Positions 4,214-22,777 of a stretch of DNA of 30,093 bases are shown here, one piece after another. Position numbers and translations under genes: made by a program. Below the pieces are notes generated by a model. It was not told the origin of the DNA. It ran no database searches and was given only the letters and a program-made list of their open reading frames with translations. Every line of letters starts with the position of its first letter. Within the stretch, counting starts at the first letter, position 1. The stretch comes from a virus (taxonomy: Duplodnaviria > Heunggongvirae > Uroviricota > Caudoviricetes). The stretch spans positions 1 through 30,093 of the IMG/VR virus record IMGVR_UViG_2802429218_000005; one strand, given 5' to 3'.

Positions 4214-4426
4214 CTAGTGAGCCATTTTATAGTCCCTTAATGCATTTTTAAGTAACTCAGTTTGCTCATAAGCATCATCATAATTATAAATTCCGGTAGC
4301 AGAATAATACTCTTCGATGCATAGAATATTTATCAATGGTTCACAAATCTCTTTAATAAACTCCTTGTTGTTATCGGCAAAAATAATTTTTATTCCTTCC
4401 AAAACAAAGCTATTATAATCAGCCAT
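4214..4426 (-). CDS. Hypothetical small acidic protein (70 aa) downstream of trbL
   Basis: Strong Shine-Dalgarno AAGGAGGTGGATA upstream of ATG; AT-rich; no family recognised. Confidence 0.5.
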   Translation of the reverse strand: MADYNSFVLEGIKIIFADNNKEFIKEICEPLINILCIEEYYSATGIYNYDDAYEQTELLKNALRDYKMAH

Positions 4427-4495
4427 TATCCACCTCCTTACAGGTGTTTAGTGGAAGCGTCAGTTAACGTTACCGCGCTAACTGACGCGTCTAAA

Positions 4496-5899
4496 TCAAG
4501 ATTTTTTACTGCCAGTAAAACTATCACCCTCAAACTCATCCTGTTCGTGGTTACTCTGACGATCGGCTGTGTGTTTACGTATTTGATTCGCTATTTCCCC
4601 ACCAACAGTCTGTTGTGTTCGGATAGAATTAGCACTTCCCTTCATCATCTGATACTCCGATGCTCCATTAGACAGCCCGCTCGCCATGTGAGAAGCCATG
4701 CGGCCAGCTCGTGAGAATGATGAAGCAAACCCCTGGCTTCCTCCGCTGACGCTACCTGTATTGCTCCCTGCAGAAGAACCACCGGAACCGCCTGATGGTT
4801 GTCCTCCAGAAGTATCTACGGAACCGGTATCTTCCCCGCCGCCAAATCCTCCACCTAAACCACCTTTATCACCAGAACCAGATTCTTCGGCCATCGCCGC
4901 TTGTGCAGATTCAAATGCTGCTTTTAGAGCGGAAGCACCACCACTGACTTGAGCTGTAGCGCTCATTGCCATTGCCCCAGCGCCACTGATTGCAGTAGTA
5001 GCAGCGCCAGTAATCATACCTGCTCCAAAACCACCGATCCCTTGTAAGGACGCTCCTCCAACAACGCCTGATAACAACAACGGTAATTTATTCGTCAATA
5101 CTAAAAGAATAATTGACGCCAGAAGTAAAACAATAAGACTATTAAGATCAGGAATATCATTTTTAATAATAGAAAAATACTGATCTAAAAATGATTGCCC
5201 AATCCCAATGATTAATGTCATTGTAAATAATTGAATACCAATCGATAATACTGTGCGTAAGTAATTTATTGCTATATCAGAAGTCCATTTCGAGCCACCA
5301 AACCCAAGAAAAATAACTCCTGCATAACACAACACCCATGCAGAAACTAACATTATTAGCATATTTATCGCGATAAGCGCCATTACTACTAATACTATTA
5401 TCGCGACGGTTATCATTATGGTCGAAATCATTGGAGACCAAATTGATGCCGCTGAACTGACCTTTGTTAATATCACAAAAGCTATATCAACTATGCTGGA
5501 GGGTGAAATACCAGTACTTGTTCCTAAAGCATTTGCTGCAAGTTGTCTCATTGAGTTAATTATAGATTGTGCTATGGCTGGGCCGTTGATTAAAAGATAA
5601 TAAAAAAAACCTATCACGGCAAAAAAACGAACTATTTCTGCAAGTGCATTGATTAAACCTTCCCCTTGCATCGCCAACATACCAAATGTCCAAACCATAC
5701 TGATTAATACCAGCCCCCAGAAGAGCCAATTCGCATAATCACCAATTACTAATGACCATGTGCTGGCTACTTGCTGAAACTTATCTAATAACGTATCAAG
5801 TAAACCGCTACTATCTAATTGACCAGCATAAGCATTTACAGAAAACAAAAAAATCATTCCCCAAAAAGTGAGTTTGCTTACTATTCTCATAATTACCAT
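4496..5899 (-). CDS. trbL: Conjugal transfer protein TrbL/VirB6-like (polytopic membrane protein with Gly/Ser-rich C-terminal tail)
   Basis: Multiple hydrophobic TM segments followed by a GGxGG/SGGS-rich low-complexity tail, typical of TrbL; sits in trbJ-K-L order. Confidence 0.75.
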   Translation of the reverse strand: MVIMRIVSKLTFWGMIFLFSVNAYAGQLDSSGLLDTLLDKFQQVASTWSLVIGDYANWLFWGLVLISMVWTFGMLAMQGEGLINALAEIVRFFAVIGFFYYLLINGPAIAQSIINSMRQLAANALGTSTGISPSSIVDIAFVILTKVSSAASIWSPMISTIMITVAIIVLVVMALIAINMLIMLVSAWVLCYAGVIFLGFGGSKWTSDIAINYLRTVLSIGIQLFTMTLIIGIGQSFLDQYFSIIKNDIPDLNSLIVLLLASIILLVLTNKLPLLLSGVVGGASLQGIGGFGAGMITGAATTAISGAGAMAMSATAQVSGGASALKAAFESAQAAMAEESGSGDKGGLGGGFGGGEDTGSVDTSGGQPSGGSGGSSAGSNTGSVSGGSQGFASSFSRAGRMASHMASGLSNGASEYQMMKGSANSIRTQQTVGGEIANQIRKHTADRQSNHEQDEFEGDSFTGSKKS

Positions 5900-6066
5900 T
5901 CTCGCTTAGGGCTAGGATTGTTATTACTGCGCAGGGCACATTTATCGTAGCTATGTTCGTTCAATTTATTCTCTGGCGTCGATAAACAATCGTCATCTTT
6001 TTTATCACAAGAGCATAGAATCAATGGAATGATTAGAATAAAAATGACCAAAAGTTTATCTTTCAT
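5893..6066 (-). CDS. Small lipoprotein-like ORF (57 aa), TrbK-like entry-exclusion candidate; not in supplied ORF track
   Basis: Hand translation MKDKLLVIFILIIPLILCSCDKKDDDCLSTPENKLNEHSYDKCALRSNNNPSPKREW; signal-peptide-like N-terminus with Cys; stop overlaps trbL start (GAATGGTAA); positioned between trbJ and trbL as trbK is in P-type systems. Confidence 0.4.
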   Translation of the reverse strand: MKDKLLVIFILIIPLILCSCDKKDDDCLSTPENKLNEHSYDKCALRSNNNPSPKREW

Positions 6067-6077
6067 TCAGCTATCCC

Positions 6078-6872
6078 TCACCAAATTCGCTTCGGGCTTG
6101 GTGTGTTCTCGCCAGCTAACGCTTTTTCATCAGCAACTATTTGTTGGGCCTCTTTATCGGTCTGAGCCAGCGCCAGTGTTGCTGCAGCGTTTTGTTGAGC
6201 TATCAGAAGCGAGCGGATTTGCAGCAGCTGGTTTGTTTGAGCACTGGCAAGCTGGTTAGCGGCCTGAATAGCTTCCATTTGCCCTTGCGCGCCGGTTGCC
6301 TGAGTTTGCAAATCTGTCAGGTTATCAGCATCGCTTTGCAGTGTTTCCTGCTGTTGATCGAGAGCCTTAAACACGGCGTCGTTCGCCTTTTTACGTGCCT
6401 CAGAGTTGTTCTGTTCAGCTTTACGCAGTGCGCTGATTTCATCCGCAGTACATTCAACATTACTGTTAAAGCACGGCGATGAGCGGTAGTAATTCACGTC
6501 CTGATAACGTTTCAGATATGAATCCAGACTACCGGCCTGATTTTTGTAGTAATTAAGGGTGTCCTGCGCCTGCAACAATTTGTTGATGGTCGAATTGGCC
6601 TGATCCCAGATATAGGCTGCAGGCGCGACTGTATTTTTGAGCATGTTTTCATACTGCTGCAGCTGCGTCTGGTACTGCTGGATCTGTTTAGCCACAGCCT
6701 GAACGTTATTGACTGCGCTGATTGTGGTCTGCACCACATTAGTACCATCGATGACAGGGATACCGGCTGTCGCCGGTAATGCCATGATGGATGCCAGGAA
6801 GGAAGCTGCTAAAGATTTTTTAGCTGCTAAAATCCCTCTCAGTGATGAAAATACTAGGAGCATTAACTTCAT
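6078..6872 (-). CDS. trbJ: Conjugal transfer protein TrbJ (VirB5-like)
   Basis: Signal-peptide-like N-terminus then AGIPVIDGTNVVQTTISAV and Q-rich coiled-coil region typical of TrbJ; adjacent to trbL. Confidence 0.75.
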   Translation of the reverse strand: MKLMLLVFSSLRGILAAKKSLAASFLASIMALPATAGIPVIDGTNVVQTTISAVNNVQAVAKQIQQYQTQLQQYENMLKNTVAPAAYIWDQANSTINKLLQAQDTLNYYKNQAGSLDSYLKRYQDVNYYRSSPCFNSNVECTADEISALRKAEQNNSEARKKANDAVFKALDQQQETLQSDADNLTDLQTQATGAQGQMEAIQAANQLASAQTNQLLQIRSLLIAQQNAAATLALAQTDKEAQQIVADEKALAGENTPSPKRIW

Positions 6873-6953
6873 TTGCCCACCTTAATTTTAACTGATTATT
6901 GATATTGAAAACTCGTACTTTTAACAGATACAGATATTTAGGAAGCCATAAAT

Positions 6954-7319
6954 TTATTTATCCAAGATTCTATCCATAATATTTCTTAGTTCTTGTCTGG
7001 TTGATTCTATTTTAGCAAGCAACGTTTTTATTAATGAGGGTGAAAAATCAACTGTGCGTGGATCGTTAGCTAACCACAGTTTAAGTAACCCACCAAGTCG
7101 ACCAAGATCAGCATTTACTCGGCTAAGCTCTACAACCTGATCAATATCTACAATAGACTCAACCTGATAACCCATTGCTACTTTACGAATGAAACTCGCT
7201 ACACTTAAGCCAGATGCTTCTGCATTTTCCTGGATTTGCGCTTTTTCATCTGGCAAACAATAAACTTTAATTGGTGTACTATTTTTTCTAGTCTGAGAAA
7301 CGGTCATATCATTCTCCAT
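6954..7319 (-). CDS. MobC-family relaxosome accessory (mobilisation) protein, ribbon-helix-helix type
   Basis: Motifs AEASGLSVASFIRKVAMG and RLGGLLKLWL resemble MobC family; size about 120 aa; upstream of trb genes. Confidence 0.55.
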   Translation of the reverse strand: MENDMTVSQTRKNSTPIKVYCLPDEKAQIQENAEASGLSVASFIRKVAMGYQVESIVDIDQVVELSRVNADLGRLGGLLKLWLANDPRTVDFSPSLIKTLLAKIESTRQELRNIMDRILDK

Positions 7320-7387
7320 ACAGGCGGTAGCCGATCAGCCTCGCAGAGCAGGACTCCATTGAGCAGCCCAGCTGCGAATAAGGGAAG

Positions 7388-7425
7388 GTAAAGTAGAAGC
7401 GCCGTTTACGGTGGGCCTACTTTAC
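7388..7425. repeat. 9-bp inverted repeat gtaaagtag / ctactttac with 20-nt spacer, about 70 bp upstream of MobC-like gene
   Basis: Read directly from sequence; arms are perfect reverse complements. Confidence 0.5.
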
Positions 7426-7590
7426 ATGTCCTGCCCCACTGTTGCCGTTGTATATCTGTGTACCCATTGTGTATTTCGGTGTAAGCAGTGTGTTTTTTTG
7501 ATGTATTTCTGCAGGTTTATTCATATATTAAGTGTGTAATATATGTGTTTTCTGAAAGGAAACTGATTTAAATACCAAAATTTAAGATAA

Positions 7591-7872
7591 TTATTCTTTC
7601 GGTTTTATCTTCGGTGGCCTACCTCGTTTCTTTTGAACCATTTCAGCACGCTGCATTAAATCGCGGTTTTCCAGCTCTGATTCAACAGAATTATCTATCC
7701 ACTCTTTAACATCTTCTCGACGCCACAAAAGTCGCTTATTGCCAGGAAGACGGCATCTGGGAGGGAGGCATTTAGGGTTCCGAGTTGCATCACTACGGAT
7801 ACTTTTCACTGTTTTCTTCAAAGCAAAAGCTAACTCTTCGACGGTTATAAGTTCAGGCATAACTGGTTTCAT
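7591..7872 (-). CDS. AlpA/excisionase-family HTH DNA-binding protein
   Basis: LITVEELAFALKKTVKSIR ... RLPGNKRLLWRREDVKEWI resembles HTH_17/AlpA/Xis-type regulators of integrative elements; basic C-terminal tail. Confidence 0.55.
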   Translation of the reverse strand: MKPVMPELITVEELAFALKKTVKSIRSDATRNPKCLPPRCRLPGNKRLLWRREDVKEWIDNSVESELENRDLMQRAEMVQKKRGRPPKIKPKE

Positions 7873-8180
7873 AGCAGAACCTATCTCTCAGAAAATATTT
7901 TCAGGATTTTAGCCGCTATAATTTTAGCCGCTAAATTTTGCAAACCAACGTTAAGAATTGAGAATACCCAAAAATTATCACCTGAAATATTTCTGTCAAC
8001 ACCTCAACAGCTAGAGGAAATAAAAAACCACTGGACCAGCTCTATTTTTTGTTCGTTTTTTGCACAACAATAAGGTTTTAATAAGTCTTTTAGTATTTTG
8101 GTTATATATATGGTTAAAGATCTGGTTAGAGAACAATAAAACAATAGCTAATCCGTTGTTTTGTAATTAATTTAAAAAAA

Positions 8181-8246
8181 TGCCCTACCTCATATGTCAA
8201 TAATTTGCCCCTCATATGTCATGAAATGGCCCCTCATATGTCATAA
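8181..8246. repeat. Three tandem iteron-like direct repeats, 22-bp period, core cctcatatgtca (8188, 8210, 8232)
   Basis: Direct reading: tgccctacctcatatgtcaata / atttgcccctcatatgtcatga / aatggcccctcatatgtcataa. Confidence 0.7.
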
Positions 8247-8331
8247 ACATAAAAAAACAAGCACAGGTTATAAACATAGTTACTAATAGAATTTGTGGAT
8301 AAATGCACAGGATATACGCAAAAAATATAAA

Positions 8332-8347
8332 TTGTTTAGCTAAACAA
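8332..8347. promoter_or_regulatory. Perfect 16-bp palindrome TTGTTTAGCTAAACAA (copy 1), candidate operator
   Basis: Exact self-complementary sequence; identical second copy at 8505..8520. Confidence 0.6.
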
Positions 8348-8403
8348 AATAGCAACAATAAAAATGAAACAAAATGTAAATAATGGATTTTGGCTATAGT
8401 TAC

Positions 8404-8429
8404 CCACAAAGGTTAGCTAACCTTTGTGG
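8404..8429. promoter_or_regulatory. Perfect 26-bp palindrome CCACAAAGGTTAGCTAACCTTTGTGG sharing core TTAGCTAA with the 16-bp palindromes
   Basis: Exact self-complementary sequence; followed by a 16-bp palindrome tctcataattatgaga at 8432..8447. Confidence 0.6.
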
Positions 8430-8504
8430 TATCTCATAATTATGAGAGCACCATCATTAACAACGGATATATCGAAACGAGTAACAGAAAATGCTCCTCG
8501 ATGG

Positions 8505-8520
8505 CTTGTTTAGCTAAACA
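8505..8520. promoter_or_regulatory. Perfect 16-bp palindrome TTGTTTAGCTAAACAA (copy 2), candidate operator
   Basis: Identical to copy at 8332..8347. Confidence 0.6.
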
Positions 8521-8813
8521 AATTTAAATTTTACTAAGTATGTATGAAGGGCAAAACCTGATCCCAAACAGGAAGGAATGGTCAATGGATAGGTGTTTTT
8601 GCTGCATAGCAACGCTACTCGCAATATAACCAGAAAAATAGGGATACTAAACCCGACAGGTGAGGCCGGGCTTGAGTATTTGTAGCTCTGGGCGGAGGGG
8701 ACATCCCACATTAGACGAAAAAATTCTATAATGAATTGTTGAGGTAAAGCAATTAGGTATTATCTAAAACAAGTTATCGCTGATGTAAAAGTTGTTATCT
8801 AACAAGTAGAAAG

Positions 8814-9080
8814 GTGAGAATTGTGAGGACAAAAAAGGCTGAACCAAGCACTGTAGGTGAAATACTTAATGAAGAATTCTTGAAACCCATGAATATGTCT
8901 TTATGTAAATTAGCGGAATTGACAGGAATGTCTTATAGTAGAATAAGAAAAATTATAATACATAATGATCCAATATCCATAAAAGAAGCATTATTACTTG
9001 CTGAAGTATTTCACACGGATCCGGATTTTTGGATAAACTTACAAAATGTTCATCATTACTGGCATCAAAAATGTAACTGA
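8814..9080 (+). CDS. XRE-family HTH protein, HigA-like antitoxin/antidote (solitary); alternative GTG start at 8823
   Basis: STVGEILNEEFLKPMNMSLCKLAELTGMSYSRIRKII...EALLLAEVFHTDPDFWINLQNVHHYW matches HigA/VapI-type antidote pattern; SD aaggtgag upstream of GTG 8823. Confidence 0.7.
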   Translation: MRIVRTKKAEPSTVGEILNEEFLKPMNMSLCKLAELTGMSYSRIRKIIIHNDPISIKEALLLAEVFHTDPDFWINLQNVHHYWHQKCN

Positions 9081-9134
9081 TATCAAAATCTGCCGTTAAT
9101 AATGTGTATTATCAACGGCATGTATTTAACAAGA

Positions 9135-10880
9135 TTAATTATACTCAATGCGGAATAATTTATTCTCTTGAGACAATTTCACAATGAAGTTTTTCTCATC
9201 GCTCAGTTCTTTTGGAAGTTTATCCTTCAATATAGATGCAACATACTGAATTTGAGATTTGTAACGTTCAACAAGATTAGCTATTCTGACCAGTTGATTG
9301 CCATGCATAAGTTCTTTTTTGTCATTTAACAAAAAATGGAAACAAGGAATGTTTTCTTCATCTGCAAATAAAATATATGCAATATCAAAACAAACAATTT
9401 CTCCTTGTTTTTTTCCTGAACTAAAATTGGTATTAAACGAACTGAATTTGTATATTTTTTTTCCTGTTTTTGATGCTGTAACAATATCATATTTCAAAGC
9501 ATATTGTTCACCGTATAACTCTTGAGACACAGTTGAAAAATATTTATTGAACTTATTTACTTGAGATTGAACTTCTAACTCAAAATCATCAGAAAATAAA
9601 TTATTGTTAATAGCATCAACTTGAGCGTTTAACTCTTCGATATTCTTTTCAGTTTTCTCAATTTGGTTAATAATGGCTTCGAACTCACCTTTTTTTCGGT
9701 GTTTTTCATTCAATTCTAAGACTAGTCCTTCAAGTTCATCAAACGAACCGCTTTTATTTATATTTTCAACTAATTCTTTTTCTTTGGCAAGAAGTATAGT
9801 TAAATCTTCTTGAGTTTTACTAATCTCACTAGTTATTACAGGTAATTCTTTTGATATGAATTTAACTTTTTCTTCAACCATTTGGTTGTGGAAGGAAAGT
9901 AATGATTCAAATTTTACCTGAATATTCTTTATATTATTACTGGCTTCAGTATATAGATCTTTCAATTGATTAGTGTCAATTTCCATCTTGCCACTTTCAA
10001 TATCTTTTACCGCCTCAACTATGAGTTCTTTCCGTAATTTAAGCTTACTTAATTTTGAACCTATAGTGCTCAATTGATACTTAATATCATCCAAAGCATT
10101 GAGATCATTTTCAAAGTTAGGGTTGATATAGAAAGTAGACTTTTTCAGATCTAAATCATTAATTTCCGAAATCAATAATGCTAGTGATGTCTCATATGCA
10201 GTGCGAGTTTGTTTAGACTCCAACCTATTCTTGAAGGTTGTTTCCATTCGGATGCTAGCTAACAAATTTTGTTTAAGAGCTCCTTTTCCAAAATCACATC
10301 CAAGAAGAAATAAATGAAGGGTCTCATATTCATCATCACGAGTAAATGAGCTTAGTGTTCTCAGCGTATGGGTGACACTGAGTTCTTTATATCTTATATT
10401 ATTAGATATTATTTGGGAAAAGGTAGGCTTATTACCATAATGGCCAGAAACTAATACGTCTGTTAACGTTTCTTCAAACTCTTCGATTGTTTTTTGTAGT
10501 CCATTAATTCTTCTGATACATTTTTTACGAGAGAGAAAATTTCGCTCAATGACGATGGTCTTAGCTAGCGGATCATCTAAATCCTCAACAAGTGTTAGGG
10601 TTATTAAAACCTCTGTTTCAATCAAGAAGTTTTTAACAAGTGTATATTCGCCCTTTTTAGTTTCTGGGTCAGTATAAATGCCTTTAGCATCTGCGCCTAA
10701 ACAAAAATCGACTAACATTAATACTGTTGTTTTACCAACATTATTGCCAGTGGTTTTGGTTGACTCGGTTGATGCTTCATCAACTGGCGTTTCATCAACG
10801 ATCAAATTCAAACCAGCATGAAACTTTATTAAGCGTATAACCCCATCTTTATTGGCTATCTGGAGAGATTTTATGAACAT
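9135..10880 (-). CDS. SMC/Rad50-like ABC ATPase with central coiled coil (LmuB-like / ABC-3C ATPase candidate)
   Basis: N-terminal FHAGLNLIVDE then Walker A GNNVGKTT (res 45-52); long E/K/L-rich central region; C-terminal Walker B-like ILFADEE; AT-rich; last gene of coupled 3-gene operon. Confidence 0.7.
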   Translation of the reverse strand: MFIKSLQIANKDGVIRLIKFHAGLNLIVDETPVDEASTESTKTTGNNVGKTTVLMLVDFCLGADAKGIYTDPETKKGEYTLVKNFLIETEVLITLTLVEDLDDPLAKTIVIERNFLSRKKCIRRINGLQKTIEEFEETLTDVLVSGHYGNKPTFSQIISNNIRYKELSVTHTLRTLSSFTRDDEYETLHLFLLGCDFGKGALKQNLLASIRMETTFKNRLESKQTRTAYETSLALLISEINDLDLKKSTFYINPNFENDLNALDDIKYQLSTIGSKLSKLKLRKELIVEAVKDIESGKMEIDTNQLKDLYTEASNNIKNIQVKFESLLSFHNQMVEEKVKFISKELPVITSEISKTQEDLTILLAKEKELVENINKSGSFDELEGLVLELNEKHRKKGEFEAIINQIEKTEKNIEELNAQVDAINNNLFSDDFELEVQSQVNKFNKYFSTVSQELYGEQYALKYDIVTASKTGKKIYKFSSFNTNFSSGKKQGEIVCFDIAYILFADEENIPCFHFLLNDKKELMHGNQLVRIANLVERYKSQIQYVASILKDKLPKELSDEKNFIVKLSQENKLFRIEYN

Positions 10881-11100
10881 ATTCCAATTTCCCCTTTGGA
10901 TTTAATTCAACTATTCCTGCTAGGTATAACCAGTCAAGAGATAAAACAAAAATTGATATAGACATTTCAATTTTTTTCTTTGTTTCGTAAAAAAGATCTA
11001 TCAATTCAATTTCATCGAAACGTTTCAGCGTATCTATAATAAACCCACCGTTATAATATAAGCTATCTTTAGGATGAATGTCCTTTGGTAACAACATCAT
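10849..11100 (-). CDS. Small overlapping ORF (83 aa), candidate middle component of three-gene system
   Basis: Overlaps upstream gene end and downstream gene start by 32 nt each (translational coupling); no motif recognised. Confidence 0.4.
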   Translation of the reverse strand: MMLLPKDIHPKDSLYYNGGFIIDTLKRFDEIELIDLFYETKKKIEMSISIFVLSLDWLYLAGIVELNPKGKLEYVHKISPDSQ

Positions 11101-12049
11101 TCACTCCGTTAGGGTCCCTAAAAATTTTACAGCGTATGAACGCGTCCACTGCAAGTATACTAACACAAAGCTCCAGTTCCTCTAATGGTATTTGTGTAAA
11201 ATTTGCACTTTTTCTGACCATTTCAACAGAGCTGTCAATTATTTTAAAAAATAGCTCATCTCCAGTGTATTGTGTACTCAATTTTACGAAGATAGTTCTA
11301 AAGGAAGACAAAACTGAAAGGCTTGAGTTTTTACCCATCTGGTTGAACTCTGAATAAATGCGGGATACTTTTCCATGATGGATTTTGTAATCTTCAATAA
11401 TATATTCAGCTGCATTCAAATTATTAAATGTAATCTTGTCAGTTACATCGAATGGTTGCGGGAAGTCAGTAGTTTCAACATTAGAAAAATCCTCCTTAGC
11501 TAATATATTTATAACAGCAGCAATATTTGTTTCGATTAAAACATTATCAGATTCCTCTTGTAACTCATTTTTTAGAAAACCGTGTATTTCTTTCTGTTTT
11601 GTTATGTCAAGATGTGAAATAACATTAAGTATCGATTTTACATCATGAATATCTTGCTGCGGTATAAAAACCAAAGCATGAGGATTAGTGTAAGTTTTAT
11701 TTCTTAAATCACTAGCATCTTTTGCAATTGATATAAATTTAAACTGATGGCCTTTATATAATCTTAAGTCTTTGTTCAAGGCTGAATCAATTTTTGTTTT
11801 AGTTGCAGTTGATGAAACCTGTAATACTATCTTCCCATTCTCATCGATAAGATCGATACCCTCAAAATTATGCTTCTCTTGATTAGTATTCTTTAGGGAA
11901 TACCCAAATAATAAATTAAAGAAGTGAACATAAAAATCTTCACAATGAAGATTATAGTTAAGAATATTTAACTTCCCTCTTAATTCAACGCTATAGCATA
12001 GCAACGTAAGCCTTTTCTCACATAAATCAAAATAAATAGATCTGTTCAC
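11069..12049 (-). CDS. Hypothetical 326-aa protein, candidate effector (LmuA-position) of three-gene defence-like operon
   Basis: First gene of the operon; AT-rich; no confidently recognisable catalytic motif by eye. Confidence 0.6.
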   Translation of the reverse strand: MNRSIYFDLCEKRLTLLCYSVELRGKLNILNYNLHCEDFYVHFFNLLFGYSLKNTNQEKHNFEGIDLIDENGKIVLQVSSTATKTKIDSALNKDLRLYKGHQFKFISIAKDASDLRNKTYTNPHALVFIPQQDIHDVKSILNVISHLDITKQKEIHGFLKNELQEESDNVLIETNIAAVINILAKEDFSNVETTDFPQPFDVTDKITFNNLNAAEYIIEDYKIHHGKVSRIYSEFNQMGKNSSLSVLSSFRTIFVKLSTQYTGDELFFKIIDSSVEMVRKSANFTQIPLEELELCVSILAVDAFIRCKIFRDPNGVNDVVTKGHSS

Positions 12050-12302
12050 ACATATTATCCTTAAACTATAAACTAATCCGATATTATGAACTTAGGTAAA
12101 GTAGAAAAACTCTTCACAGATCTTACAGCATCTACGAGCTGGTTCAAGGTATGTTGAGATGGATTGAGATGTGTAGCGTATCTTCTCATTCCAAAAAGAA
12201 ACCTGCCACAATTTTGCCACACTCACAACGCGCAAAAATGCACATTTGTGTTAAGAAAAGCAAAACAACGCAACAGTAACCAGATGATTTTATTAGAAAA
12301 AA

Positions 12303-12348
12303 TGGTGCCGATAATAGGAGTCGAACCTACGACCTTCGCATTACGAAT
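12303..12348 (-). tRNA. tRNA-Thr(CGU) 3' fragment, 46 nt from anticodon loop to CCA (thrW-like att-core remnant, not a complete gene)
   Basis: Reverse complement reads ATTCGTAATGCGAAGGTCGTAGGTTCGACTCCTATTATCGGCACCA; sequence 5' of the anticodon loop does not continue as tRNA. Confidence 0.7.
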
Positions 12349-12571
12349 CATAAGAATCCGCTTCTAATTCAAAGTATTACCCCATCAACACTGCGCTCAC
12401 ACGTCCCACCACATCAAAACATGTAAAGCCTTGCAAGCCATTGTGAGGCCTTATGTGTCTCAGTTTTGTCCCACTACGACCTGCACAGAAAATAAGAAAA
12501 TAGCGGTGATATCAAACAGTACAGAAGTCTTTTTTCTTTCAAATGGAGAAACTGATTAACCCGTTTAATTG

Positions 12572-12796
12572 TACTCCTCATGGGCAATCAGCAGTCCTCA
12601 GAGTAATGGAATGGCAGAAAGGTTCGTGAAAACGATGAAGGAAGACTACATCGCGTTCATGCCGAAACCGAATGTAAGAACGGCATTGCATAATCTTGCA
12701 GTGGCGATCGAACATTACAATGAAAACCATCCGCACAGTGCGTTGGGTTATCGCTCTCCGCGAGAATATCGACGTCAGCGGGTAACGTTAACTTAA
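12572..12796 (+). pseudogene. DDE transposase/integrase-core C-terminal fragment (IS3/IS481-like), 5'-truncated
   Basis: [18 protein letters not shown] ... [14 protein letters not shown] are C-terminal rve-domain motifs; in-frame stop immediately upstream, no N-terminal part present. Confidence 0.55.
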
Positions 12797-12837
12797 GATA
12801 CACCCCCTGTCTGGAAATAAGGGGGCAAGAACAATGA

Positions 12838-13590
12838 TCAGATTCCCTGGTGAGTAAGAATTTTACTTTCTGAACTCCTCTGAGAGTATTGACTTGGAGA
12901 AACACCAAAATAACGTCTAAATACATAAGTAAAGTATGAGACACTGACATAACCACAGACCTTAGCTACTTTACTAATAGGATAACAACGAGTGCTGAGT
13001 AAATATTCAGCCATTTGCATCCTCTCATCAAGTATGATCTTACTGAATGATACCCCCTCTTCTTTCAATTTCCTCTTTAGTAAACTTTCGCTGAGATATA
13101 ATCTTGATGATATATCCTTAAGACGCCATGGTGCAGATAAATCCGTATGAATAATCGTTTTAACTTTAGCCCCTGTGCTTTTCAAACATCCAAACAGAAA
13201 TACTCCAAATTGTTTTTCAGAAGAAAATGCAGAGAGACATGTAAAAGCAATAGACTCATCAAAAGTTTCTATGTATTCAGCACAGTGATTAGCCCAACTA
13301 ATTAATCCTTTAATTAAACTGAAGTCAGCAAAGTTTATTTTTAAATAAGATGGATATTCCCTACAATCAGAAATATCCCTTAAGTTATTAGCTTTCAAAT
13401 AGCGACTAATAAACTCAGCGCCAAAATCCGCCACTATCACTCTTTCAGGATATGTCAGGAAAAAATCTCTATAGCTAGAGTCGACAAGTACAGATAAACC
13501 TCTATCCAGAAACACACTCTCTTTTCCGAAATAAACATCAAAGGACTCCAAAATCAATATAACTGAACATGTAGTTGCCATATCATCCAC
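12838..13590 (-). CDS. AraC-family transcriptional regulator (AppY/EnvY-like subfamily)
   Basis: C-terminal HTH region WRLKDISSRLYLSESLLKRKLKEEGVSFSKIILDERMQMAEYLL...CGYVSVSYFTYVFRRYFGVSPSQY resembles AppY/EnvY as recalled; AT-rich. Confidence 0.8.
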   Translation of the reverse strand: MDDMATTCSVILILESFDVYFGKESVFLDRGLSVLVDSSYRDFFLTYPERVIVADFGAEFISRYLKANNLRDISDCREYPSYLKINFADFSLIKGLISWANHCAEYIETFDESIAFTCLSAFSSEKQFGVFLFGCLKSTGAKVKTIIHTDLSAPWRLKDISSRLYLSESLLKRKLKEEGVSFSKIILDERMQMAEYLLSTRCYPISKVAKVCGYVSVSYFTYVFRRYFGVSPSQYSQRSSESKILTHQGI

Positions 13591-14164
13591 CCAATTTAAC
13601 TGAAACCAGGATGAAGTATATGCATATAAAGTTCACTTTGCCAAACTTCAGTATAAAAAACCACATAAAAAATAGGGTGTGATAAAAAATACCGTAAAAA
13701 TAAAGCAAAGGATTATAAATTCCGTTACAGTTACAAATGATACTTAAGAAACAATTCCTTAGAAAACCTTATTTACAGCCAATAAGTAAGACACTTATAT
13801 GATATCAAGTTTTCATAAAACATAACTAGGCTAAATAGCTGCGCCTAATACCGCTACACTTTTGCCATCCCATGTTTGCCTCCGGGTATTGACCCCTTCT
13901 CTACGCAACTTCAGTTCCCACCACCAACTTTGCGGCAGCTTTGTAGGATCAATGTCTAAAAGAATAATGGTGACCGATAAGAAAACGACTGAATAACTGC
14001 AGATTTTCGCTCGAAACCTTCCTGTCAGATCCATAGCGAATCAAGTGCTGAATGTCACAGTATCGAACAGAAAACAGTGACGATCTAACCCTTCAAGAAT
14101 ATTCTACGATTGTTCTGTTTAGGAAAAGCAAGGCGGGAAGTCGGGAGATAAGTCATTGATAAAG

Positions 14165-14230
14165 TGGCGGAGAGAGGGGGATTTGACCCCCCGGTAGAGT
14201 TGCCCCTACTCCGGTTTTCGAGACCGGTCC
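14165..14230 (-). tRNA. tRNA-Ser(CGA) 3' fragment, about 66 nt, with T-arm substitution (GTTC to GGTC); serU-like att-core remnant
   Basis: Reverse complement reads GGACCGGTCTCGAAAACCGGAGTAGGGGCAACTCTACCGGGGGGTCAAATCCCCCTCTCTCCGCCA; 5' part of tRNA absent. Confidence 0.7.
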
Positions 14231-14309
14231 AATCATCAAACGAAACATAAAATTAATTCACATTATGAGGAAAAGTATCTTTTTTGTACTTGTAAATTCA
14301 AAGGCTTAG

Positions 14310-15179
<870 letters not shown>

Positions 15180-15239: not shown

Positions 15240-15794
15240 TCATTTATCTCCGACCGGAAACTTCTTATACAGTGTCGATATACCAACATCATAGATGATC
15301 GCCACCTTCTGGCGAGGAACGCCTGATGCAATTAATCGTCCGGCCTGCTCCCATTGTTCTGGTGTAAGTTTGGGGCGACGTCCACCAATTCGTCCCTGTG
15401 CGCGAGCTGCTTCTAGTCCAGCTTTTGTTCGTTCAACAATCAGTTCACGCTCCATTTCAGCCAGGGCACCCATCACATGAAAGAAAAAGCGCCCCATTGG
15501 GGTACTGGTATCAATTGAATCCGTCAGACTACGAAAGTTGATGCCTCGTTCGCGCAACTCCTCCACCAGCACGACAAGATGCCGCATACTGCGCCCCAGT
15601 CGGTCCAGTTTCCAGACCACCAGCGTGTCACCTGCCGATAATGTCCTGAGCAGCTTTTTCAGTCCTGGTCTGTCGGACTTTGTACCGCTTATCTTGTCTT
15701 CAAAAATTAGCTCACACCCTGCACAGTTCAGCGCATTGCGTTGTAGATCGGTATTCTGGTCATTTGTTGATACACGTACATAGCCAATAAGCAT
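15240..15794 (-). CDS. pin: Serine recombinase DNA invertase, Pin/Gin/Hin/Cin family
   Basis: MLIGYVRVSTNDQNTDLQRNAL...VVWKLDRLGRSMRHL...GRIGGRRPKLT nearly identical to my recollection of e14 Pin; SD AGGGGGA 5 nt upstream of ATG at 15794; track N-terminal extension is spurious. Confidence 0.9.
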   Translation of the reverse strand: MLIGYVRVSTNDQNTDLQRNALNCAGCELIFEDKISGTKSDRPGLKKLLRTLSAGDTLVVWKLDRLGRSMRHLVVLVEELRERGINFRSLTDSIDTSTPMGRFFFHVMGALAEMERELIVERTKAGLEAARAQGRIGGRRPKLTPEQWEQAGRLIASGVPRQKVAIIYDVGISTLYKKFPVGDK

Positions 15795-15847
15795 GTTAAA
15801 TCCCCCTGGTAAAAGCAGGAATGATGCCATTTGCTTGTTATTTCTTC

Positions 15848-16204
15848 ATTTTCATAAACGTTGGTTTGGGAGAAGCCAGATATGTCATTCAGCGAGGAGC
15901 TAATGCCAATGGTGCGTGGATACGCTGGTCAGATGGTGCAATAGAAGTCTTTGGAACGGGGGGTTCTAATGATAATGGACTGGCTAAAGTCGTTTATCCA
16001 ATTGCGCTACCTAAGCTTTCACGTTTTATCAGCATAGCGGAAAGAATAGGAACGGATTATGGGGGCACATCTAATAACGTTCACGTTTCAATGATCGTGG
16101 ATGACCAGGTCACTAATACCGGTTTTTATGTCCGCTGCCAGATGTACGACGGAACACCATCAACAAGTGCTTTTTCCTGGAGGGTTTATTGTGCGCCTGT
16201 TTAA
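15848..16204 (+). CDS. Alternate tail-fibre C-terminal variable segment (promoterless in present orientation)
   Basis: Frame runs through crossover site encoding NVGLGE, matching NLGLGE encoded at the other site within the expressed fibre gene. Confidence 0.5.
   Translation: MFINVGLGEARYVIQRGANANGAWIRWSDGAIEVFGTGGSNDNGLAKVVYPIALPKLSRFISIAERIGTDYGGTSNNVHVSMIVDDQVTNTGFYVRCQMYDGTPSTSAFSWRVYCAPV
15849..15874. repeat. Invertase crossover site (gix/pix-like), copy proximal to pin
   Basis: ttttcataaacgttggtttgggagaa; reverse complement TTCTCCCAAACCAACG... shares 14 bp with site at 17460 and resembles gix/hix consensus. Confidence 0.7.
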
Positions 16205-16388
16205 TCCTGTTACTTTGACTGAAGTAATCCCCGGTCTTCATGACGTGACCGGGGCTGTTGAATTACCAGAAGATAACTGGTTTTTTACTGCATCTGAAAT
16301 CCCTGAAGGAATGGAAATATCTGTTAACGAGAAGGGAGAACCCATTCTGATTGAGATTAAACCGTCTCAGGAGGAACTGGCCAGATGA
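16190..16388 (+). CDS. Short alternate tail-fibre assembly (Tfa-like) ORF, 66 aa, GTG start overlapping upstream stop
   Basis: VRLFNPVTLTEVIPGLHDVTGAVELPEDNWFF resembles Tfa N-termini; much shorter than typical Tfa. Confidence 0.4.
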
Positions 16389-16962
16389 CATCTGGCGCGG
16401 TGCTGGTATCTGTTGCCATCACCGCGTCAGTGTAATCCAGCACGGCGTTAAGTCGGGTGTTTTCTGCCTGCGTCAGCTTCCGCCCGGCCTGCAATTTCAG
16501 TTGAATCAGACTAATGGAAACCATTGCAGCATCAATCAGCGACTGCCGCTGTGTTTCTGCCATGTCTACTGCTGCTCTATGCTGTGCCTCGGTATCCGTC
16601 ACCCATTTCTCACCATCCCATTTATCGTATGGCGTTAACGGGGCGATAGTGGTTGTCTTTTCAGGGTAATCACCCGGAGCTGTGATTTCTTTTGATTCTC
16701 CTGTTTCGGTGCTATAGACGATTTCACCGCGATGGTCTGGCACATATTCCCATGAGTTAAAATCTGCAGAACGGCAAATTGCATAACCAGCTTTATATGA
16801 GCCAGGAGCATCTAAACAGGAACATGCCGGGATACCGACACCCACAGCAAGATATTCGGTTGATGTGGAAATATATTCTCGTGTTTCACCATCATAATTA
16901 TAAACGGTAATATCTCCCGCCTTTGTGGCGATGAGTTCCTTATTTAATATAGCTTTATCCAT
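16357..16962 (-). CDS. Tail fibre assembly protein (Tfa)
   Basis: Typical Tfa architecture with C-terminal ...RLNAVLDYTDAVMATDTSTAPDVIWPVPP; immediately downstream of fibre gene. Confidence 0.85.
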   Translation of the reverse strand: MDKAILNKELIATKAGDITVYNYDGETREYISTSTEYLAVGVGIPACSCLDAPGSYKAGYAICRSADFNSWEYVPDHRGEIVYSTETGESKEITAPGDYPEKTTTIAPLTPYDKWDGEKWVTDTEAQHRAAVDMAETQRQSLIDAAMVSISLIQLKLQAGRKLTQAENTRLNAVLDYTDAVMATDTSTAPDVIWPVPPETV

Positions 16963-17762
16963 CAGGCAGCCCTCACGATATAATTAAAGGCAATGTTACG
17001 GGGTCGATTTTCGTTTGCAGTTGGAACAATTCTTGAAGCATCAAGGCCAATCACTTTTGGGTAAACACTGCCCTCGGACCTTTCTGTCACCATACTTCTG
17101 ACTAAGGAGAAATAACTATTGTTCGTTGAGGGGTTCAAAGGCACCACTGCCCCCTTAAACGAGCCTACTGATTCCCATATTGAATAATTTTCGGTGTTTA
17201 CAGTCTTGAACTCACCATAGATATTACGTATGGCATCGCCCTGAGCGGATAATATTGTTCTCCCCGCATCCGCACTACGCCCATCATCCCAGCCACGAAT
17301 AAATTCACCGCGTAAATCAGGCAATTTATTTGTCGGGTAAGCCTTTGCCAGTTCCGGGTATTCTTCAGCAGAAAAAGCCGCACCATTGCATTTCAGCCAG
17401 CCTGTCGGCGGAGTGGCGGAAGGCCACGGAACAGGCACACCGACAGGTAATGCAGAGCCTTCTCCCAAACCAAGGTTTTCGAGAGCCGTTTTCACCGTGC
17501 CATCCGATTTGATATCGCCAAACGGATTCTTGCGGCTTAACAGCAGCGCACGAAGCGCGGTAAGCAGCTGGTCGTGCCGCGCCTTCTCCAGACTGGCACC
17601 GGATGCCTCCACCACGCTGCAGAGTTCTTCCTGCAACATATCAAAGTAGTCATCATCCAGATCGGTGGCAGGCGTGCCAGTCTGGGGGTTACCACGGGTA
17701 AAACCGTTCTTACCCGCGCCGAACTTATCCTTCTGCGCGGTTTTCGTGTCTATACGATGCAT
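16962..17762 (-). CDS. Tail fibre protein (constant N-terminal part about 100 aa outside invertible segment, variable C-terminal part inside)
   Basis: Collar-like region [23 protein letters not shown]...[16 protein letters not shown]; crossover site lies within codons for ALENLGLGE. Confidence 0.85.
17460..17485. repeat. Invertase crossover site (gix/pix-like), copy inside tail-fibre gene
   Basis: ttctcccaaaccaaggttttcgagag, inverted relative to the 15849 site. Confidence 0.7.
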
Positions 17763-17765
17763 GGA

Positions 17766-18350
17766 TTACTCCGGATATTTAAAAATTACGTAGGTATGCG
17801 AAGGGGAGAGTTTGTTAAGCACACATTCGACGACGGTGTCGCCCCAGATACGCAGCGCGGTATCACAGGGATCGCCACATGTCATCCAGGTGGTGTTGGT
17901 GGCGGCTGGCATGTTGACCTGCCAGTAATACCGCCATTCCGGCGCATTCACCGCGTCAGTACAGGCAGATGAGCAGGTGAACGTGCTTTTGTCGTATCGC
18001 GTGATGGTAGCGTCTGGTCTGCCCAGGGCAGCAAGCTGTGCAAGGTAAAAATCCTCATTGATGCCGCCCGCCAGGTTAACCTTCGCATCCAGTCGTTGCT
18101 GACGCTGGCGAAGGGTCTGTGTCCCTGCGGGAATACATTCATCCGGCAGACCGCACAGACGCTCCCAGCGGTTTATCAGTTCAGTGGTGGTGCGCGGATC
18201 CAGCTCCCGCATCAGGGCATCCGCACGCTGATGAACGCGGGTTAATGACGGTGCCGCACCGGCAATCGCCGGATCTCTGGCTGACCACGCCGGACCGGGT
18301 GGCAACAGTGCCGACAACAGACGGATGTAATCATCGTTTGTCACGTCCAT
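17766..18350 (-). CDS. Baseplate/tail protein, Mu gp48-like (YmfQ/DUF2313-like)
   Basis: Position between baseplate J-like and tail fibre; N-terminus [22 protein letters not shown] as in e14 YmfQ-type proteins as recalled. Confidence 0.75.
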
Positions 18351-19399
18351 GAAATCGTCCCCAGTACCGCCAGTTCATTTTTTGCAATGGAGATATTGTC
18401 CGCCGGTGCAAGCAACTGATGGCTGTATTCCCCGTTCGCACCGGAAATCGCTTCACTGATACGTGACACCTTCAGTTCTCCCTGCGGATAACCATCACGC
18501 AGCAGGAACGAACGCAACTCCGCGGTAATGGCAGCCCGTATTTCTGGTGTGTCCGGCGTCACGCGGATATGAAAATCCACCGTATGTGCCACCGGCCTGA
18601 ATACATACAAATCAGAGCCTGCCACCGGGGCCAGTGGCCCGATATGTTGTCTTGCTGCCGTTTCCGTTGATTCTTCCGGAATGGGATTAATCAGGTCACT
18701 GCTGGCAATCATCACACCGACAGTTCCCGTTCCCATCCAGTGGCGGTATGTCCATGCACGGGTAATGCCTGGCACTTCTTTAGCCCAGACGACATAGTCC
18801 CCGTCAGCCCCGCCCTGAGGCGTCCAGTAATACCGCTCAATGACGCGGGCGCGCCACGTTTCCAGCTCTTCAGTATCAAATCCGCCTGTCAGGGTGTCAG
18901 CCACACCGGAAGACGGCAGACCATTCACCGGCGTGACCAGGATTAATGCCGTACCGTCGTCAGCGTTACCGACCGCGCCTGTAGTTGAGCAAGTGATCGG
19001 CACACGCAGGACACCACCGGAGCTGGTTGCATCGGCAGTTGCCGTGTACTGAACCAGGTCATCGCGCTGAATCACGCTCCCGGCAGTCACCTTCAGGCCA
19101 TCGCTGACACCTTCCCAGCGCATATACCCGCTGGCAGCCGTGGCCCCCTTGCGCGGACACCGTTTCATCGCAGCATGTCGCGCCAGCCAGGACTCATCGC
19201 ACAGGTCAGGCAGCATATTCATTGCCAGATAATCGATGTACCCGTAAACCGTATGCAGCGCCGCCGCATACACCTTTGCCCGCACGTCTTCATCCATGCG
19301 CCGGAGCGTGTCGCTGACGTCCAGCCTGGCGAATAAATCGTTACGGAGCATACTGATATTTTCTGCCAGCGTCGGGCGCTGAAATTCACTGTCCGCCAT
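18341..19399 (-). CDS. Baseplate J-like protein (Mu gp47-like)
   Basis: Size and position in conserved Mu-like baseplate gene order; overlapping start/stop with neighbours. Confidence 0.8.
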
Positions 19400-19814
19400 G
19401 CGTTATCGCACTCCACAGATCATCAAAAGAAATCATTACCGGTCCGTCACGACGCCAGAGAGTGATACTGTTACCCAGTTCATTAATCCCGGTGCGGCGG
19501 ATATCCAGATCAATACGGGACACCACGCCGTCATCAATCATCCATTGCAGGCATTCGCGGATATATCCCCTTACCGTCTGCACCAGTTGATTGGTCAGTT
19601 TGCTGCGCTGAAGCAGCCACAGTCGGGAGCCGTAACGGTCATTCTGTACCGCAGGCCAGGTATCCCCCCACCATCCCATCGGGACGTCGGCGTTGTCATC
19701 AGGCTCCGCCCGCCGCCAGGTAAACAGGGAAATCACCACGGCGCGGGTCAGCGGATCCAGCGGTGCGCTGGCGCAGGTGCGTTTACCGTTCACCGTCAGC
19801 CACAGTTCCATCAT
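19386..19814 (-). CDS. Baseplate protein, Mu gp46-like
   Basis: Size and position between gp45-like and J-like genes; overlapping coupling. Confidence 0.75.
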   Translation of the reverse strand: MMELWLTVNGKRTCASAPLDPLTRAVVISLFTWRRAEPDDNADVPMGWWGDTWPAVQNDRYGSRLWLLQRSKLTNQLVQTVRGYIRECLQWMIDDGVVSRIDLDIRRTGINELGNSITLWRRDGPVMISFDDLWSAITHGGQ

Positions 19815-20359
19815 GCCTCCATCGCTTTATCCGGTTTGTCGGTGTTACTGCCCTGACCGTTCTCTCTGTGACGATGCCCGTTATAGGCAAGCCGCATCGC
19901 TGACATGGTGGTACCGCCGGAGTCGCACAGGTCTTTCACCTGTCCGGTCACTTCCAGGTCCATTTCAAAACGTGCTCTGGGCGCATTGCGAAACGTGATC
20001 GTTTTACCTGCACCGTCCACCACGATCCCCTCCCGGGTCAGCGTCACGGACTGCCCCTGATCGTCATAGACAGCCACCTCACCCGTCTGCAGCCCTTTCA
20101 GGCGGTAGCGCCGGTCCGACACCGTAACAACCACCGCATGAGAACGGTCACCATCCGGAAACAACACCACCGCTTCCGCACCGCTGTTTGCCCTTGCGGT
20201 AAAACCGTAGGGTTCAAGATGTTCAACCCCGGCTTTGGGTTCACCGGCAATCAGGGACACATCCACGGTCTGACATTTCGTGGCGGCACTGATGCTTTTC
20301 ACCACCGCCCGCCCAATCAGGCCGAGGAGTTGTCGCTGTATGGTTTCAATCGCCTTCAT
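19811..20359 (-). CDS. Baseplate assembly/spike protein, Mu gp45 (gpV-like)
   Basis: Size, position and overall pattern of gpV-like proteins. Confidence 0.75.
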   Translation of the reverse strand: MKAIETIQRQLLGLIGRAVVKSISAATKCQTVDVSLIAGEPKAGVEHLEPYGFTARANSGAEAVVLFPDGDRSHAVVVTVSDRRYRLKGLQTGEVAVYDDQGQSVTLTREGIVVDGAGKTITFRNAPRARFEMDLEVTGQVKDLCDSGGTTMSAMRLAYNGHRHRENGQGSNTDKPDKAMEA

Positions 20360-21438
20360 CAGAACGGGTCCTCCTGTACTCTGGCTTTTTTCTTTTTCCG
20401 CGCGCCGGGGGCTTCGGGTTCAGGCAGATAAGCATCAGGTGGGCCGACACGGATTTCCGTCAGGGTGCCATTCTGGTCCTGAGTAAACGTGACTTCCGAG
20501 ACAAGCAGTTCGGTATTGTCGAAACCACAGACCGGATCGAAGACAATCACCCGCTGGTTGGGCTGCCACAGCGTACCGTTACCCTGTCGCCAGCCCTGCA
20601 CCACATAGGTGGTTTCATCCGTCCGCGCCGCCCGTTGTCGGGCTTCAAAGTCAGCACGCGCAATACAGCCTGCCCCCGTAGCCTGCCCTGTCTGCCTGAT
20701 ATACATCGGACGGTAACGGGCAATAAATGCATCCTCTGTGCGGGCCCGCAGCGCGGTGGTGGTGGCCTCACCGAAATCATCGTCGTTTCCGGCACGCTGC
20801 CCCGCCACCTGGTAAACTGAAAACCGCTCCCGGATACTCTTCTCCGTATCACAGGAAAGGATGTTTTCCCCAAGTACCAGCGCGGTATGTGCCCGCGTTG
20901 AGCCAATACCACCAATCACCAGCCTGCCGTGCGGGTCGTCATAAGCCAGCGCCTGCTGCTGACCGAGTATTTTGTTGATCACCTCGATCACCGTTTCACC
21001 GTGATCAGGCTGGACATCCGGAATAACACCCGACGGCGCACCGTTGTTCACCACCTCAATGCCGAAGGGCGCAGCAAGCGCCTGCGCAATCTGTACCAGC
21101 GATCGTCCGTTAAACTGTGTCGGTTCGGCTGCACAGTCAATCAGATCAGCGGTTAGACTGCGTCCGGCAATACCGGTGCTGACCGAACGGGCATCGTAAC
21201 GAACGGGCGTCGCCTCCACCCAGCCGGTGATCACCAGCTCATCACCAATCAGCACTTCCACTTTTGAACCGTTTTTAATGCGCGGCTGAAGCGTGGTGAT
21301 ACCCTCATCTCCCGGCCACTGGCGGGTGATCTCCACACTGAAATCCCGCGCCAGTCGTTCAACACCGGCACCGATGCGCACCGATGTCCAGCCATTCCAC
21401 TCCCGGCCATTTACCCGTAGCGTGACGTTATCGTTCAT
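20359..21438 (-). CDS. Tail/baseplate hub protein, Mu gpP / late control D-like
   Basis: Size and position downstream of DNA-circulation gene in Mu-like order. Confidence 0.75.
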   Translation of the reverse strand: MNDNVTLRVNGREWNGWTSVRIGAGVERLARDFSVEITRQWPGDEGITTLQPRIKNGSKVEVLIGDELVITGWVEATPVRYDARSVSTGIAGRSLTADLIDCAAEPTQFNGRSLVQIAQALAAPFGIEVVNNGAPSGVIPDVQPDHGETVIEVINKILGQQQALAYDDPHGRLVIGGIGSTRAHTALVLGENILSCDTEKSIRERFSVYQVAGQRAGNDDDFGEATTTALRARTEDAFIARYRPMYIRQTGQATGAGCIARADFEARQRAARTDETTYVVQGWRQGNGTLWQPNQRVIVFDPVCGFDNTELLVSEVTFTQDQNGTLTEIRVGPPDAYLPEPEAPGARKKKKARVQEDPF

Positions 21439-22763: not shown

Positions 22764-22777
22764 ATAAACTCCGGATA

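Follow-up and report, generated by a model that had tools for sequence, protein, structure and literature searches.

Do two tRNA fragments that lie 1.8 kb apart on the same strand record two integration events at the place where they are found? The question is raised by the IMG/VR virus record IMGVR_UViG_2802429218_000005, of which positions 1 to 30,093 were analysed (hereafter the window, 30,093 nucleotides). Here, the 3' end of a tRNA-Thr gene (the Thr piece) and the 3' end of a tRNA-Ser gene (the Ser piece) stand on either side of a transposase fragment and a gene for an AraC-family regulator. An earlier note, made from the letters of the window, had interpreted the two pieces as attachment-site (att) scars that bracket an islet acquired by tandem or nested insertion. 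The comparisons described below point to a different answer. With good confidence, the Thr piece can be regarded as a local att junction of an SfV-type prophage, and the Ser piece as a fossil of the serU locus that was carried in by the phage.

The positions, strands and lengths previously given for both pieces are exact. Window positions 12348..12303 correspond to nucleotides 31-76 of thrW in 46 of 46 positions (E 5e-22), and positions 14230..14165 to nucleotides 25-90 of serU(CGA) in 65 of 66 positions (E 2e-31). Both E-values were calculated against the window alone and are far beyond chance. The sole mismatch of the Ser piece is located in the T arm (GGGGGTTCAAATCCCCC to GGGGGGTCAAATCCCCC), as had been noticed before. 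Neither piece is a full tRNA: ARAGORN found 0 tRNA genes in the window, and Rfam at the gathering threshold found no tRNA. The features reported between the pieces are also present, the transposase fragment being of the IS3 insertion sequence (IS) family with an rve_3 domain and the AraC gene being intact. Both pieces were confirmed as att-core copies of the kind made by tRNA-targeting tyrosine integrases.

The Thr piece at the thrW hotspot

As judged from its flanks, the window belongs to the thrW integration hotspot of E. coli, between yagP'/paoD and thrW-proA. It contains two elements in tandem, a genomic island (island A) on the left and the SfV-type prophage on the right (Table 1). A total of 5,426 complete E. 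coli genomes was searched. The exact arrangement across positions 9500-17500 was found in none of them, and the far ends of both elements, which lie outside the window, were taken from sister genomes. Strain TW14425 is 100% identical to window positions 1-12400. Its left part consists of paoD, yagP', a 49-nt copy of thrW, an integrase, about 30 kb of island and a 46-nt copy of thrW. This is followed by the IS3 stub, the AraC gene, a GIY-YIG gene, the prophage, an integrase, the intact thrW and proA. In this strain, an IS1-corA insertion between the AraC gene and the GIY-YIG gene has removed the Ser piece.

Genomes that lack one of the two elements, a comparison proposed in the earlier note, break at the Thr copy. 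In SCU-118, which lacks island A, the match to the window starts at 12301 and runs rightwards, and 124 bp separate the Thr copy from the yagP' fragment. In A23, which lacks the prophage, island A runs directly into an intact thrW followed by proA, and the 46 nt of the window are the 3' part of this intact gene. In many genomes, the match stops at exactly 12348 with nothing beyond. Intact copies and integrases outside the window, a search for which had also been proposed, were found in sister genomes. The prophages of SCU-118 and TW14425 end with an integrase followed by intact thrW and proA, and an integrase together with an intact serU was found in strain RMDEC332. The far end of island A in TW14425 has an integrase of its own, next to the 49-nt thrW copy beside yagP'.

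The phage side of the junction was identified by comparison with phage attachment sites (attP). The attP of SfV contains exactly the same block of thrW, nucleotides 31-76, and window positions 12300-12473 are 96.6% identical to it. Positions 12350-12473 share 96-98% identity with SfII, SfI, SfIV and SfV, and the stretch is labelled attP in the SfII record. Positions 12391-12588 are 97% identical to the lambdoid phages PhiR29_1 and PhiR29_2, near the ends of their records. SfV Int shares 98% identity with the integrase that adjoins thrW in TW14425. Because the breakpoints of SCU-118-type and A23-type genomes and the SfV attP match fix its position, the Thr piece is best read as an att core copy formed in situ. 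It is the shared junction of the SfV-type prophage and island A, whose tRNA-proximal end is the right end of 1..12302. As such it is a classic case of an att copy displaced at a familiar hotspot, and probably still a working partner for excision. The tandem part of the acquisition proposed earlier is supported by the Thr piece, with the island to its left and the prophage to its right. The nested part is not supported, as the Ser piece is no local scar of a nested insertion.

In K-12, the RNA antisense to ptwF, the 49-nt thrW copy of that strain, has been described as a candidate TadA A-to-I editing site (PMC13170351). The plus strand of the window at 12303-12348 reads ...GCATTACGAAT... The 46-nt copy is without the 5' half of the anticodon stem, and an antisense hairpin matching that of ptwF would be incomplete.

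The Ser piece and its serU flank

The origin of the Ser piece is indicated by the DNA next to it. Positions 13887-14230 are collinear with K-12 positions 2043190-2043533 (97.4% identity), which comprise 278 bp of the yodB-serU spacer and the last 66 nt of serU. The same spacer stretch (13887-14164) adjoins yodB in strains 41 and RMDEC332. A tandem dilysogen or a hybrid attP would place a phage attP arm to the left of the Ser piece; this possibility was rejected, since the DNA found there corresponds to the yodB-serU spacer of K-12. The locus, which is thrW, offers neither a serU gene nor a serU bacterial attachment site (attB), and the host flank ends after 278 bp at a stub of an IS630-family element.

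The match of this stub to the ISEc33 copy of strain AH04 takes in the end of the IS and the final transposase codons. The outer end of the stub faces the AraC gene, and it is cut internally at 13886, inside the transposase gene. Since the ISEc33 end is truncated internally, the junction at 13886/13887 reads as an illegitimate join and not as a site of IS insertion. Within the phage DNA of the window, 278 bp plus 66 nt of host DNA thus continue directly from an att junction, an arrangement that is also found in the phages mEp332, ev099 and PhiR70_1. On the other side of the captured host DNA, the interior of ISEc33 is joined to the spacer 56 bp from the IS end.

To the right of the Ser piece, the window resembles phages that integrate at serU. 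Positions 14149-14289 are 74% identical to the region between the integrase and pin genes of Salmonella phage ST64B, and 14231-14289 resemble the pin/tail-fibre side of the ST64B attP arm. A chimeric query retrieved two complete genomes, RMDEC332 and MB15, whose true serU locus has an uninterrupted series of yodB, the whole 569-bp spacer, the Ser copy of 66 nt and the GIY-YIG gene that is also in the window. RMDEC332 was the one serU-resident sister prophage examined in full. Its Ser copy (66/66) stands at the integrase-distal end, and its far end consists of an integrase, three hypothetical genes, the intact serU and mtfA. The prophage is about 97% identical to the window over 13887-15242, 17461-22787 and 23455-30093. 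It is homologous to the thrW prophage of TW14425 up to the yfdS region, where the integration modules diverge. The RMDEC332 integrase is 83% identical to ST64B Int, and the ST64B-like and the SfV-type integrases are unrelated beyond family level. By these alignments, the approximately 97% identity of the backbone combined with the unrelated integrases identifies one phage backbone with two alternative integration modules, a serU/ST64B-type and a thrW/SfV-type module. The thrW version still holds the integrase-distal host junction of the serU version. The Ser piece can consequently be described as a genuine att scar from another locus, serU, that was imported as a fossil carried inside a phage.

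The T loop of the Ser copy occurs in three states. It is wild type in serU, at the real serU junction and in all lambda-like copies, has one change in the window and two changes in three other thrW copies examined. This allele series fits the slow decay of a non-functional fragment, and the Ser copy is most likely inert and decaying. At window positions 14176-14177, the plus strand changes from GAACCCCC (wild type) to GACCCCCC (window) and GCCCCCCC (the three other thrW copies, L001 17973, L002 17876 and L014 15593). Each step makes the run of C longer.

Distribution and proposed history of the cassette

Positions 12583-14224/6, which comprise the IS3 stub, the AraC gene, the IS630 stub, the serU flank and the Ser piece (the cassette), were found with 98.6-99% identity in the lambdoid phages mEp332, ev099 and PhiR70_1. 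mEp332 is a plaque-forming lambdoid phage (PMC3442831). The neighbours of the cassette in mEp332 and ev099 are attP/int on one side and the side tail fibre genes on the other. Two lambda-like prophages also have it, with a Ser piece of 62 nt: that of strain 200112 at att-lambda, next to bioA-ybhB, and that of strain EC19 at argW/intS. In CT265, the cassette stretch is cut by IS1. In O157:H7, the core of the cassette comes after a P4-like satellite, a 46-nt Thr copy and an SfV arm. This core (12583-13886; IS3 stub, AraC gene and IS630 stub) was detected in 644 of the complete E. coli genomes (approximately 12%), and the Ser relic is present in the examined cassette copies that are uncut by IS1. 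The portability of the cassette is directly seen in these records. A single origin of all copies is argued for by the IS630/spacer junction, because it is identical in all of them.

In EC19, the AraC cassette and tail-fibre genes at argW (L020 5401-8459) are immediate neighbours of the gene for the IntS integrase, an unusual order for an integrated prophage. This order suggests a large internal deletion or a rearranged remnant.

A chimeric query of yodB and the cassette yielded the AraC cassette within about 1.5 kb of yodB in 0 of the 5,426 complete genomes. The candidate explanation that the cassette is native chromosomal DNA beside yodB/serU was discarded, as no genome has both together. In these genomes there is therefore no sign that the AraC gene was ever native to the serU locus. 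The same findings bear on a chromosomal rearrangement, in which homologous recombination between related prophages at serU and thrW would have inverted or translocated a segment and moved the serU junction to thrW. Prophages with the same backbone do occur at both sites in different strains, and thrW and serU are oppositely oriented in K-12. However, only 278 bp of serU flank are present, which end at an IS stub with no yodB or zinT beyond, the identical junction occurs in lambdoid phage genomes and in prophages at other sites, and the sister genomes have yodB at a separate place. A rearrangement is therefore considered very unlikely.

What, then, is the supposed islet? In SfV, the position after the attP arm is occupied by the cargo genes gtrA, gtrB and gtrV, and the islet is found at this position in the window. 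The IS3 stub is 96-98% identical to ISEc48-type IS3 copies; O157 and ev099 retain 223 bp more of this fragment than the window, in which the stub is the left end of the cargo cassette as retained there. Two independent local integrations, by a Thr- and a Ser-targeting integrase, would have left scars that delimit a nested or tandem islet with the AraC gene and the transposase fragment. In favour of this reading, each piece is a true copy of a tRNA 3' end, the two share one orientation at a distance of 1.8 kb, and the Thr piece does mark the junction of a tandem array. A bracketed islet is nevertheless not compatible with the remaining findings. The locus contains no serU gene or serU attB that could have served as a target, and no integrase was found in the 1.8-kb stretch between the pieces by open reading frame (ORF) and domain searches. 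The 278 bp of serU-flanking chromosome that come with the Ser piece already contradict a local origin, and cassette and Ser piece occur together at att-lambda, at argW and in phage genomes. Two local scars are thus extremely unlikely. From its position, the islet is better understood as the integrase-distal cargo end of the thrW prophage than as an island bracketed by two att sites. The earlier note had also placed a switch from AT-rich to GC-richer DNA at the Ser piece. The GC content does rise rightwards, but it does so gradually, from 34-35% at 13001-14000 to 41-48% over 14001-17000, and passes 54% no earlier than about 17500, with no switch at the Ser piece.

The DNA of the AraC gene is 98.9% identical to that of the single AraC gene of the homologous O157:H7 prophage at thrW. 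In two publications (PMC3681947, PMC11879457), PatE, an AraC-like activator of acid resistance, is placed on the O157:H7 prophage CP-933H. Based on locus homology and these secondary citations, the AraC protein of the window is probably the PatE orthologue of CP-933H. Database entries name the protein only 'AraC family'.

The cassette is joined at the Ser core to two classes of phage arms. One is ST64B-like and follows after 66 nt. The other is a lambda-like tail-fibre arm that follows after 60-62 nt in mEp332, ev099 and the prophages of L018 and L020. Both classes also occur at real serU loci. Two arm classes on one cassette imply that at least one later exchange took place within or beside the relic. 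These junctions speak for a Ser relic kept for use, either as a portable secondary att site or 344-bp homology patch that lets serU-type phages recombine with resident prophages, or as an insulator upstream of the AraC gene. On the other side, thrW-resident copies have one or two T-loop substitutions, which is consistent with neutral decay, the prophages of TW14425 and CT265 persisted although IS1 events had deleted or cut their relics, and a scan of the serU relic (13887-14230) predicted neither a terminator nor a promoter. A retained function is accordingly judged unlikely. A related idea is that the 344-bp relic acts as a portable docking site, at which phages and prophages of serU recombine with unrelated lambdoid prophages at thrW, att-lambda or argW. 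It would shuffle tail-fibre arms and a PatE-type regulator between siphovirus-type and myovirus-type phages, and would have left the two arm classes at the Ser core as a trace of these exchanges. This idea is doubtful, and is mentioned as a speculation.

The explanation preferred here, a local Thr junction and an imported Ser fossil, would involve the following events. Island A would have been the first to integrate at thrW, as suggested by the att geometry. Later, an SfV-type temperate phage would have entered the regenerated thrW gene, its integrase recombining the 46-bp identity block of attP with thrW. Outside the window, next to the integrase, this integration would have restored an intact thrW; inside, it would have left the displaced 46-nt 3' copy at 12303-12348, between the tRNA-proximal end of island A and the integrase-distal arm of the phage. 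The backbone of this phage would descend from an ST64B-like phage resident at serU. The integrase-distal serU junction, with its 66-nt copy and 278 bp of host DNA, may have entered the phage genome by an illegitimate join to the IS630 stub near the AraC gene. Two routes of capture can be envisaged. The first is an imprecise excision of a serU prophage of the lambda-bio type; the second is an illegitimate exchange between an IS630 copy in the cargo region of a related phage and the spacer 278 bp beyond serU. By either route, the serU-type integration module would have been lost and replaced by another one, here of the SfV type.

Several points weigh against this explanation. The genome to which the window belongs is not among the complete genomes, so that the far ends are those of its sisters, and the closest relative, TW14425, lost the Ser piece to the IS1-corA insertion. 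That the islet lies inside the excisable unit follows from the geometry of the att sites only, because no sequenced virion has the exact thrW-type arrangement of SfV arm and cassette; phage records pair the cassette with other types of attP. The capture may have gone by imprecise excision or by an illegitimate or IS-mediated recombination of phage and prophage, and no intermediate with a full IS630 element or a longer serU flank was found.

The consequences are mainly practical. A tRNA fragment within an island usually counts as proof that integration took place locally. The Ser piece suggests that such a fragment can also arrive as phage cargo, together with a piece of its original chromosomal flank. 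The cassette core is present in approximately 12% of the complete E. coli genomes, and the examined copies that are uncut by IS1 carry the imported Ser relic; an island history deduced from counting att scars would therefore overestimate the number of events there. The main use of the finding is therefore caution in annotation, where att fragments are read as local events. In addition, it documents a backbone that has been combined with both the serU/ST64B-type and the thrW/SfV-type module, and traces a probable PatE regulator as a cassette common to different lambdoid phages.

Neighbouring features and comparison with known systems

Island A contains remnants of a conjugation module. A traJ-II cis-regulatory RNA (Rfam, 90 bits) is located at 7337-7436 on the minus strand, just upstream of traJ. 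With this RNA and traJ in a P-type conjugation remnant, island A looks like a decayed integrative conjugative element. An assignment to the CP4-6/IntF type, which likewise leaves a 49-nt thrW copy, was rejected, since the catalytic domains of the two integrases share only 25% identity. The tRNA-proximal tip of the island (9135-12049, minus strand) is occupied by a three-gene ABC-three-component (ABC-3C) system, consisting of an SMEK_N/CTD10 protein, a middle component 6 and a DUF2326 protein. The P4-like satellite of O157 at the same hotspot has a different ABC-3C set. A possible toxin-antitoxin pair of the Fic/VbhT type is located at 196-1078, at the left edge of the window, where a gene for a VbhA-family antitoxin (851-1078) comes after a hypothetical ORF of 222 aa.

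An IS1-flanked segment with the chromosomal genes corA and ysgD has moved into the hotspot in TW14425 (L007 32089-35300) and in strain DAM (L001 11990-15201). In TW14425 it replaces window positions 14073-14257 including the Ser piece, and in DAM it lies to the left of the Thr copy. A 112-nt 'tRNA-Ser' annotated by RefSeq at TW14425 968443-968554 (L010 13444-13555) consists of the 49-nt thrW 3' copy and unrelated island DNA. ARAGORN found no tRNA in it, and the entry is probably a mis-annotation.

In the prophage, which continues past the end of the window, the Pin-type invertase gene (15240-15830) adjoins oppositely oriented ORFs for tail-fibre and tail-fibre-assembly proteins. By analogy with Mu, e14 and ST64B, 15240-17762 is likely an invertible host-range segment.

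Table 1. Coordinates of the features in the window, with the evidence for each assignment.
Feature	Position	Strand	Evidence or remarks
Right-hand 12.3 kb of island A, thrW-integrated	1..12302		IS3 copy, trbL/trbJ/traJ conjugation remnants, HigA antitoxin, ABC-3C three-gene system
Remnant of P-type conjugation module	traJ 6954-7319; trbJ 6078-6872; trbL 4496-5899		near traJ-II RNA
3' 46 nt of tRNA-Thr(CGU) thrW, nt 31-76	12303..12348	-	46/46 identity
Integrase-distal arm of P22/SfV-type attP	12349..12582		identity to SfV/SfII/SfI/SfIV attP and PhiR29_1/2
C-terminal fragment of IS3-family (ISEc48-like) transposase	12583..12833	+	rve_3; matches to IS3/IS2 TnpB C-terminus
Intact AraC-family regulator (247 aa, annotated start 13581)	12838..13590	-	HTH_AraC/HTH_18; YdeO/GadX-like
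Region upstream of AraC, one promoter-like site (13644-13615, minus strand)	13591..13830		consensus match only
Terminal 56 bp of IS630-family element (ISEc33)	13831..13886		52/56 to ISEc33 end in strain AH04
E. coli chromosomal DNA (278 bp), normally immediately downstream of serU	13887..14164		serU-proximal half of yodB-serU spacer
3' 66 nt of tRNA-Ser(CGA) serU, nt 25-90, T-loop T to G	14165..14230	-	65/66
Integrase-distal arm of ST64B-like attP(serU)	14231..14354		ST64B alignment; same context at serU in RMDEC332
Gene for a LEM-3-like GIY-YIG protein (start annotated at 14406), the first in the prophage proper	14355..15179	+	Pfam PF22945; RefSeq annotation of sister genomes
SfV/ST64B-like prophage part: Pin-type invertase, invertible tail-fibre segment, Mu-like baseplate/tail module, head-tail connector genes	15240..30093	-	annotation of sister genomes

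The locus is a new instance of known processes, namely integration at tRNA genes, formation of tandem arrays, capture of host DNA and swapping of integration modules. A literature search on serU/thrW att fossils and on ev099/PhiR70 yielded no description of the relic itself. The closest likeness on the Thr side is to the serotype-converting phages SfV, SfII, SfI and SfIV of Shigella and E. coli (P22-type), which share the identical 46-nt thrW block, an integrase-distal arm of 96-98% identity, an integrase that is 98% identical between SfV and the sister prophage, and a cargo locus immediately after the arm. Their cargo consists of gtrA, gtrB and a type-specific gtr gene, whereas the window contains the IS3 stub, the AraC gene, the IS630 stub and the serU fossil, followed by the GIY-YIG gene and pin. 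The K-12 pseudogene ptwF, at the far end of the cryptic prophage CP4-6, is likewise a displaced 3' copy of thrW on the yagP side of the hotspot. This copy of 49 nt (nt 28-76) is part of an IntF-type element, whereas that of the window has 46 nt and is part of an SfV-type phage. TW14425 has a separate 49-nt copy beside the island A integrase, the one with only 25% identity to IntF.

On the Ser side, prophages at serU such as Salmonella ST64B and the E. coli lambdoid prophage SerU-LTIIb have a displaced serU copy of 62-66 nt at the integrase-distal tail-fibre end, followed by the yodB-serU spacer. In these prophages the junction is at serU, with yodB beyond and the intact serU at the other end, whereas in the window the spacer is reduced to 278 bp and stands within a thrW prophage. 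The AraC gene of the window is likened to PatE of CP-933H by locus homology: an AraC gene with 98.9% identical DNA occupies the same position in the homologous thrW prophage of O157:H7, and the database names are generic. Finally, the relic resembles the lambda bio and gal transducing phages, in which host DNA is contiguous with an att junction in a viable phage, the boundary is illegitimate and the original integration module is lost. For the window, a capture mechanism of this kind is what we infer. Unlike the transducing phages, the cassette retains 278 bp and no host gene, stems from an ancient event and circulates within a cargo cassette among lambdoid phages.

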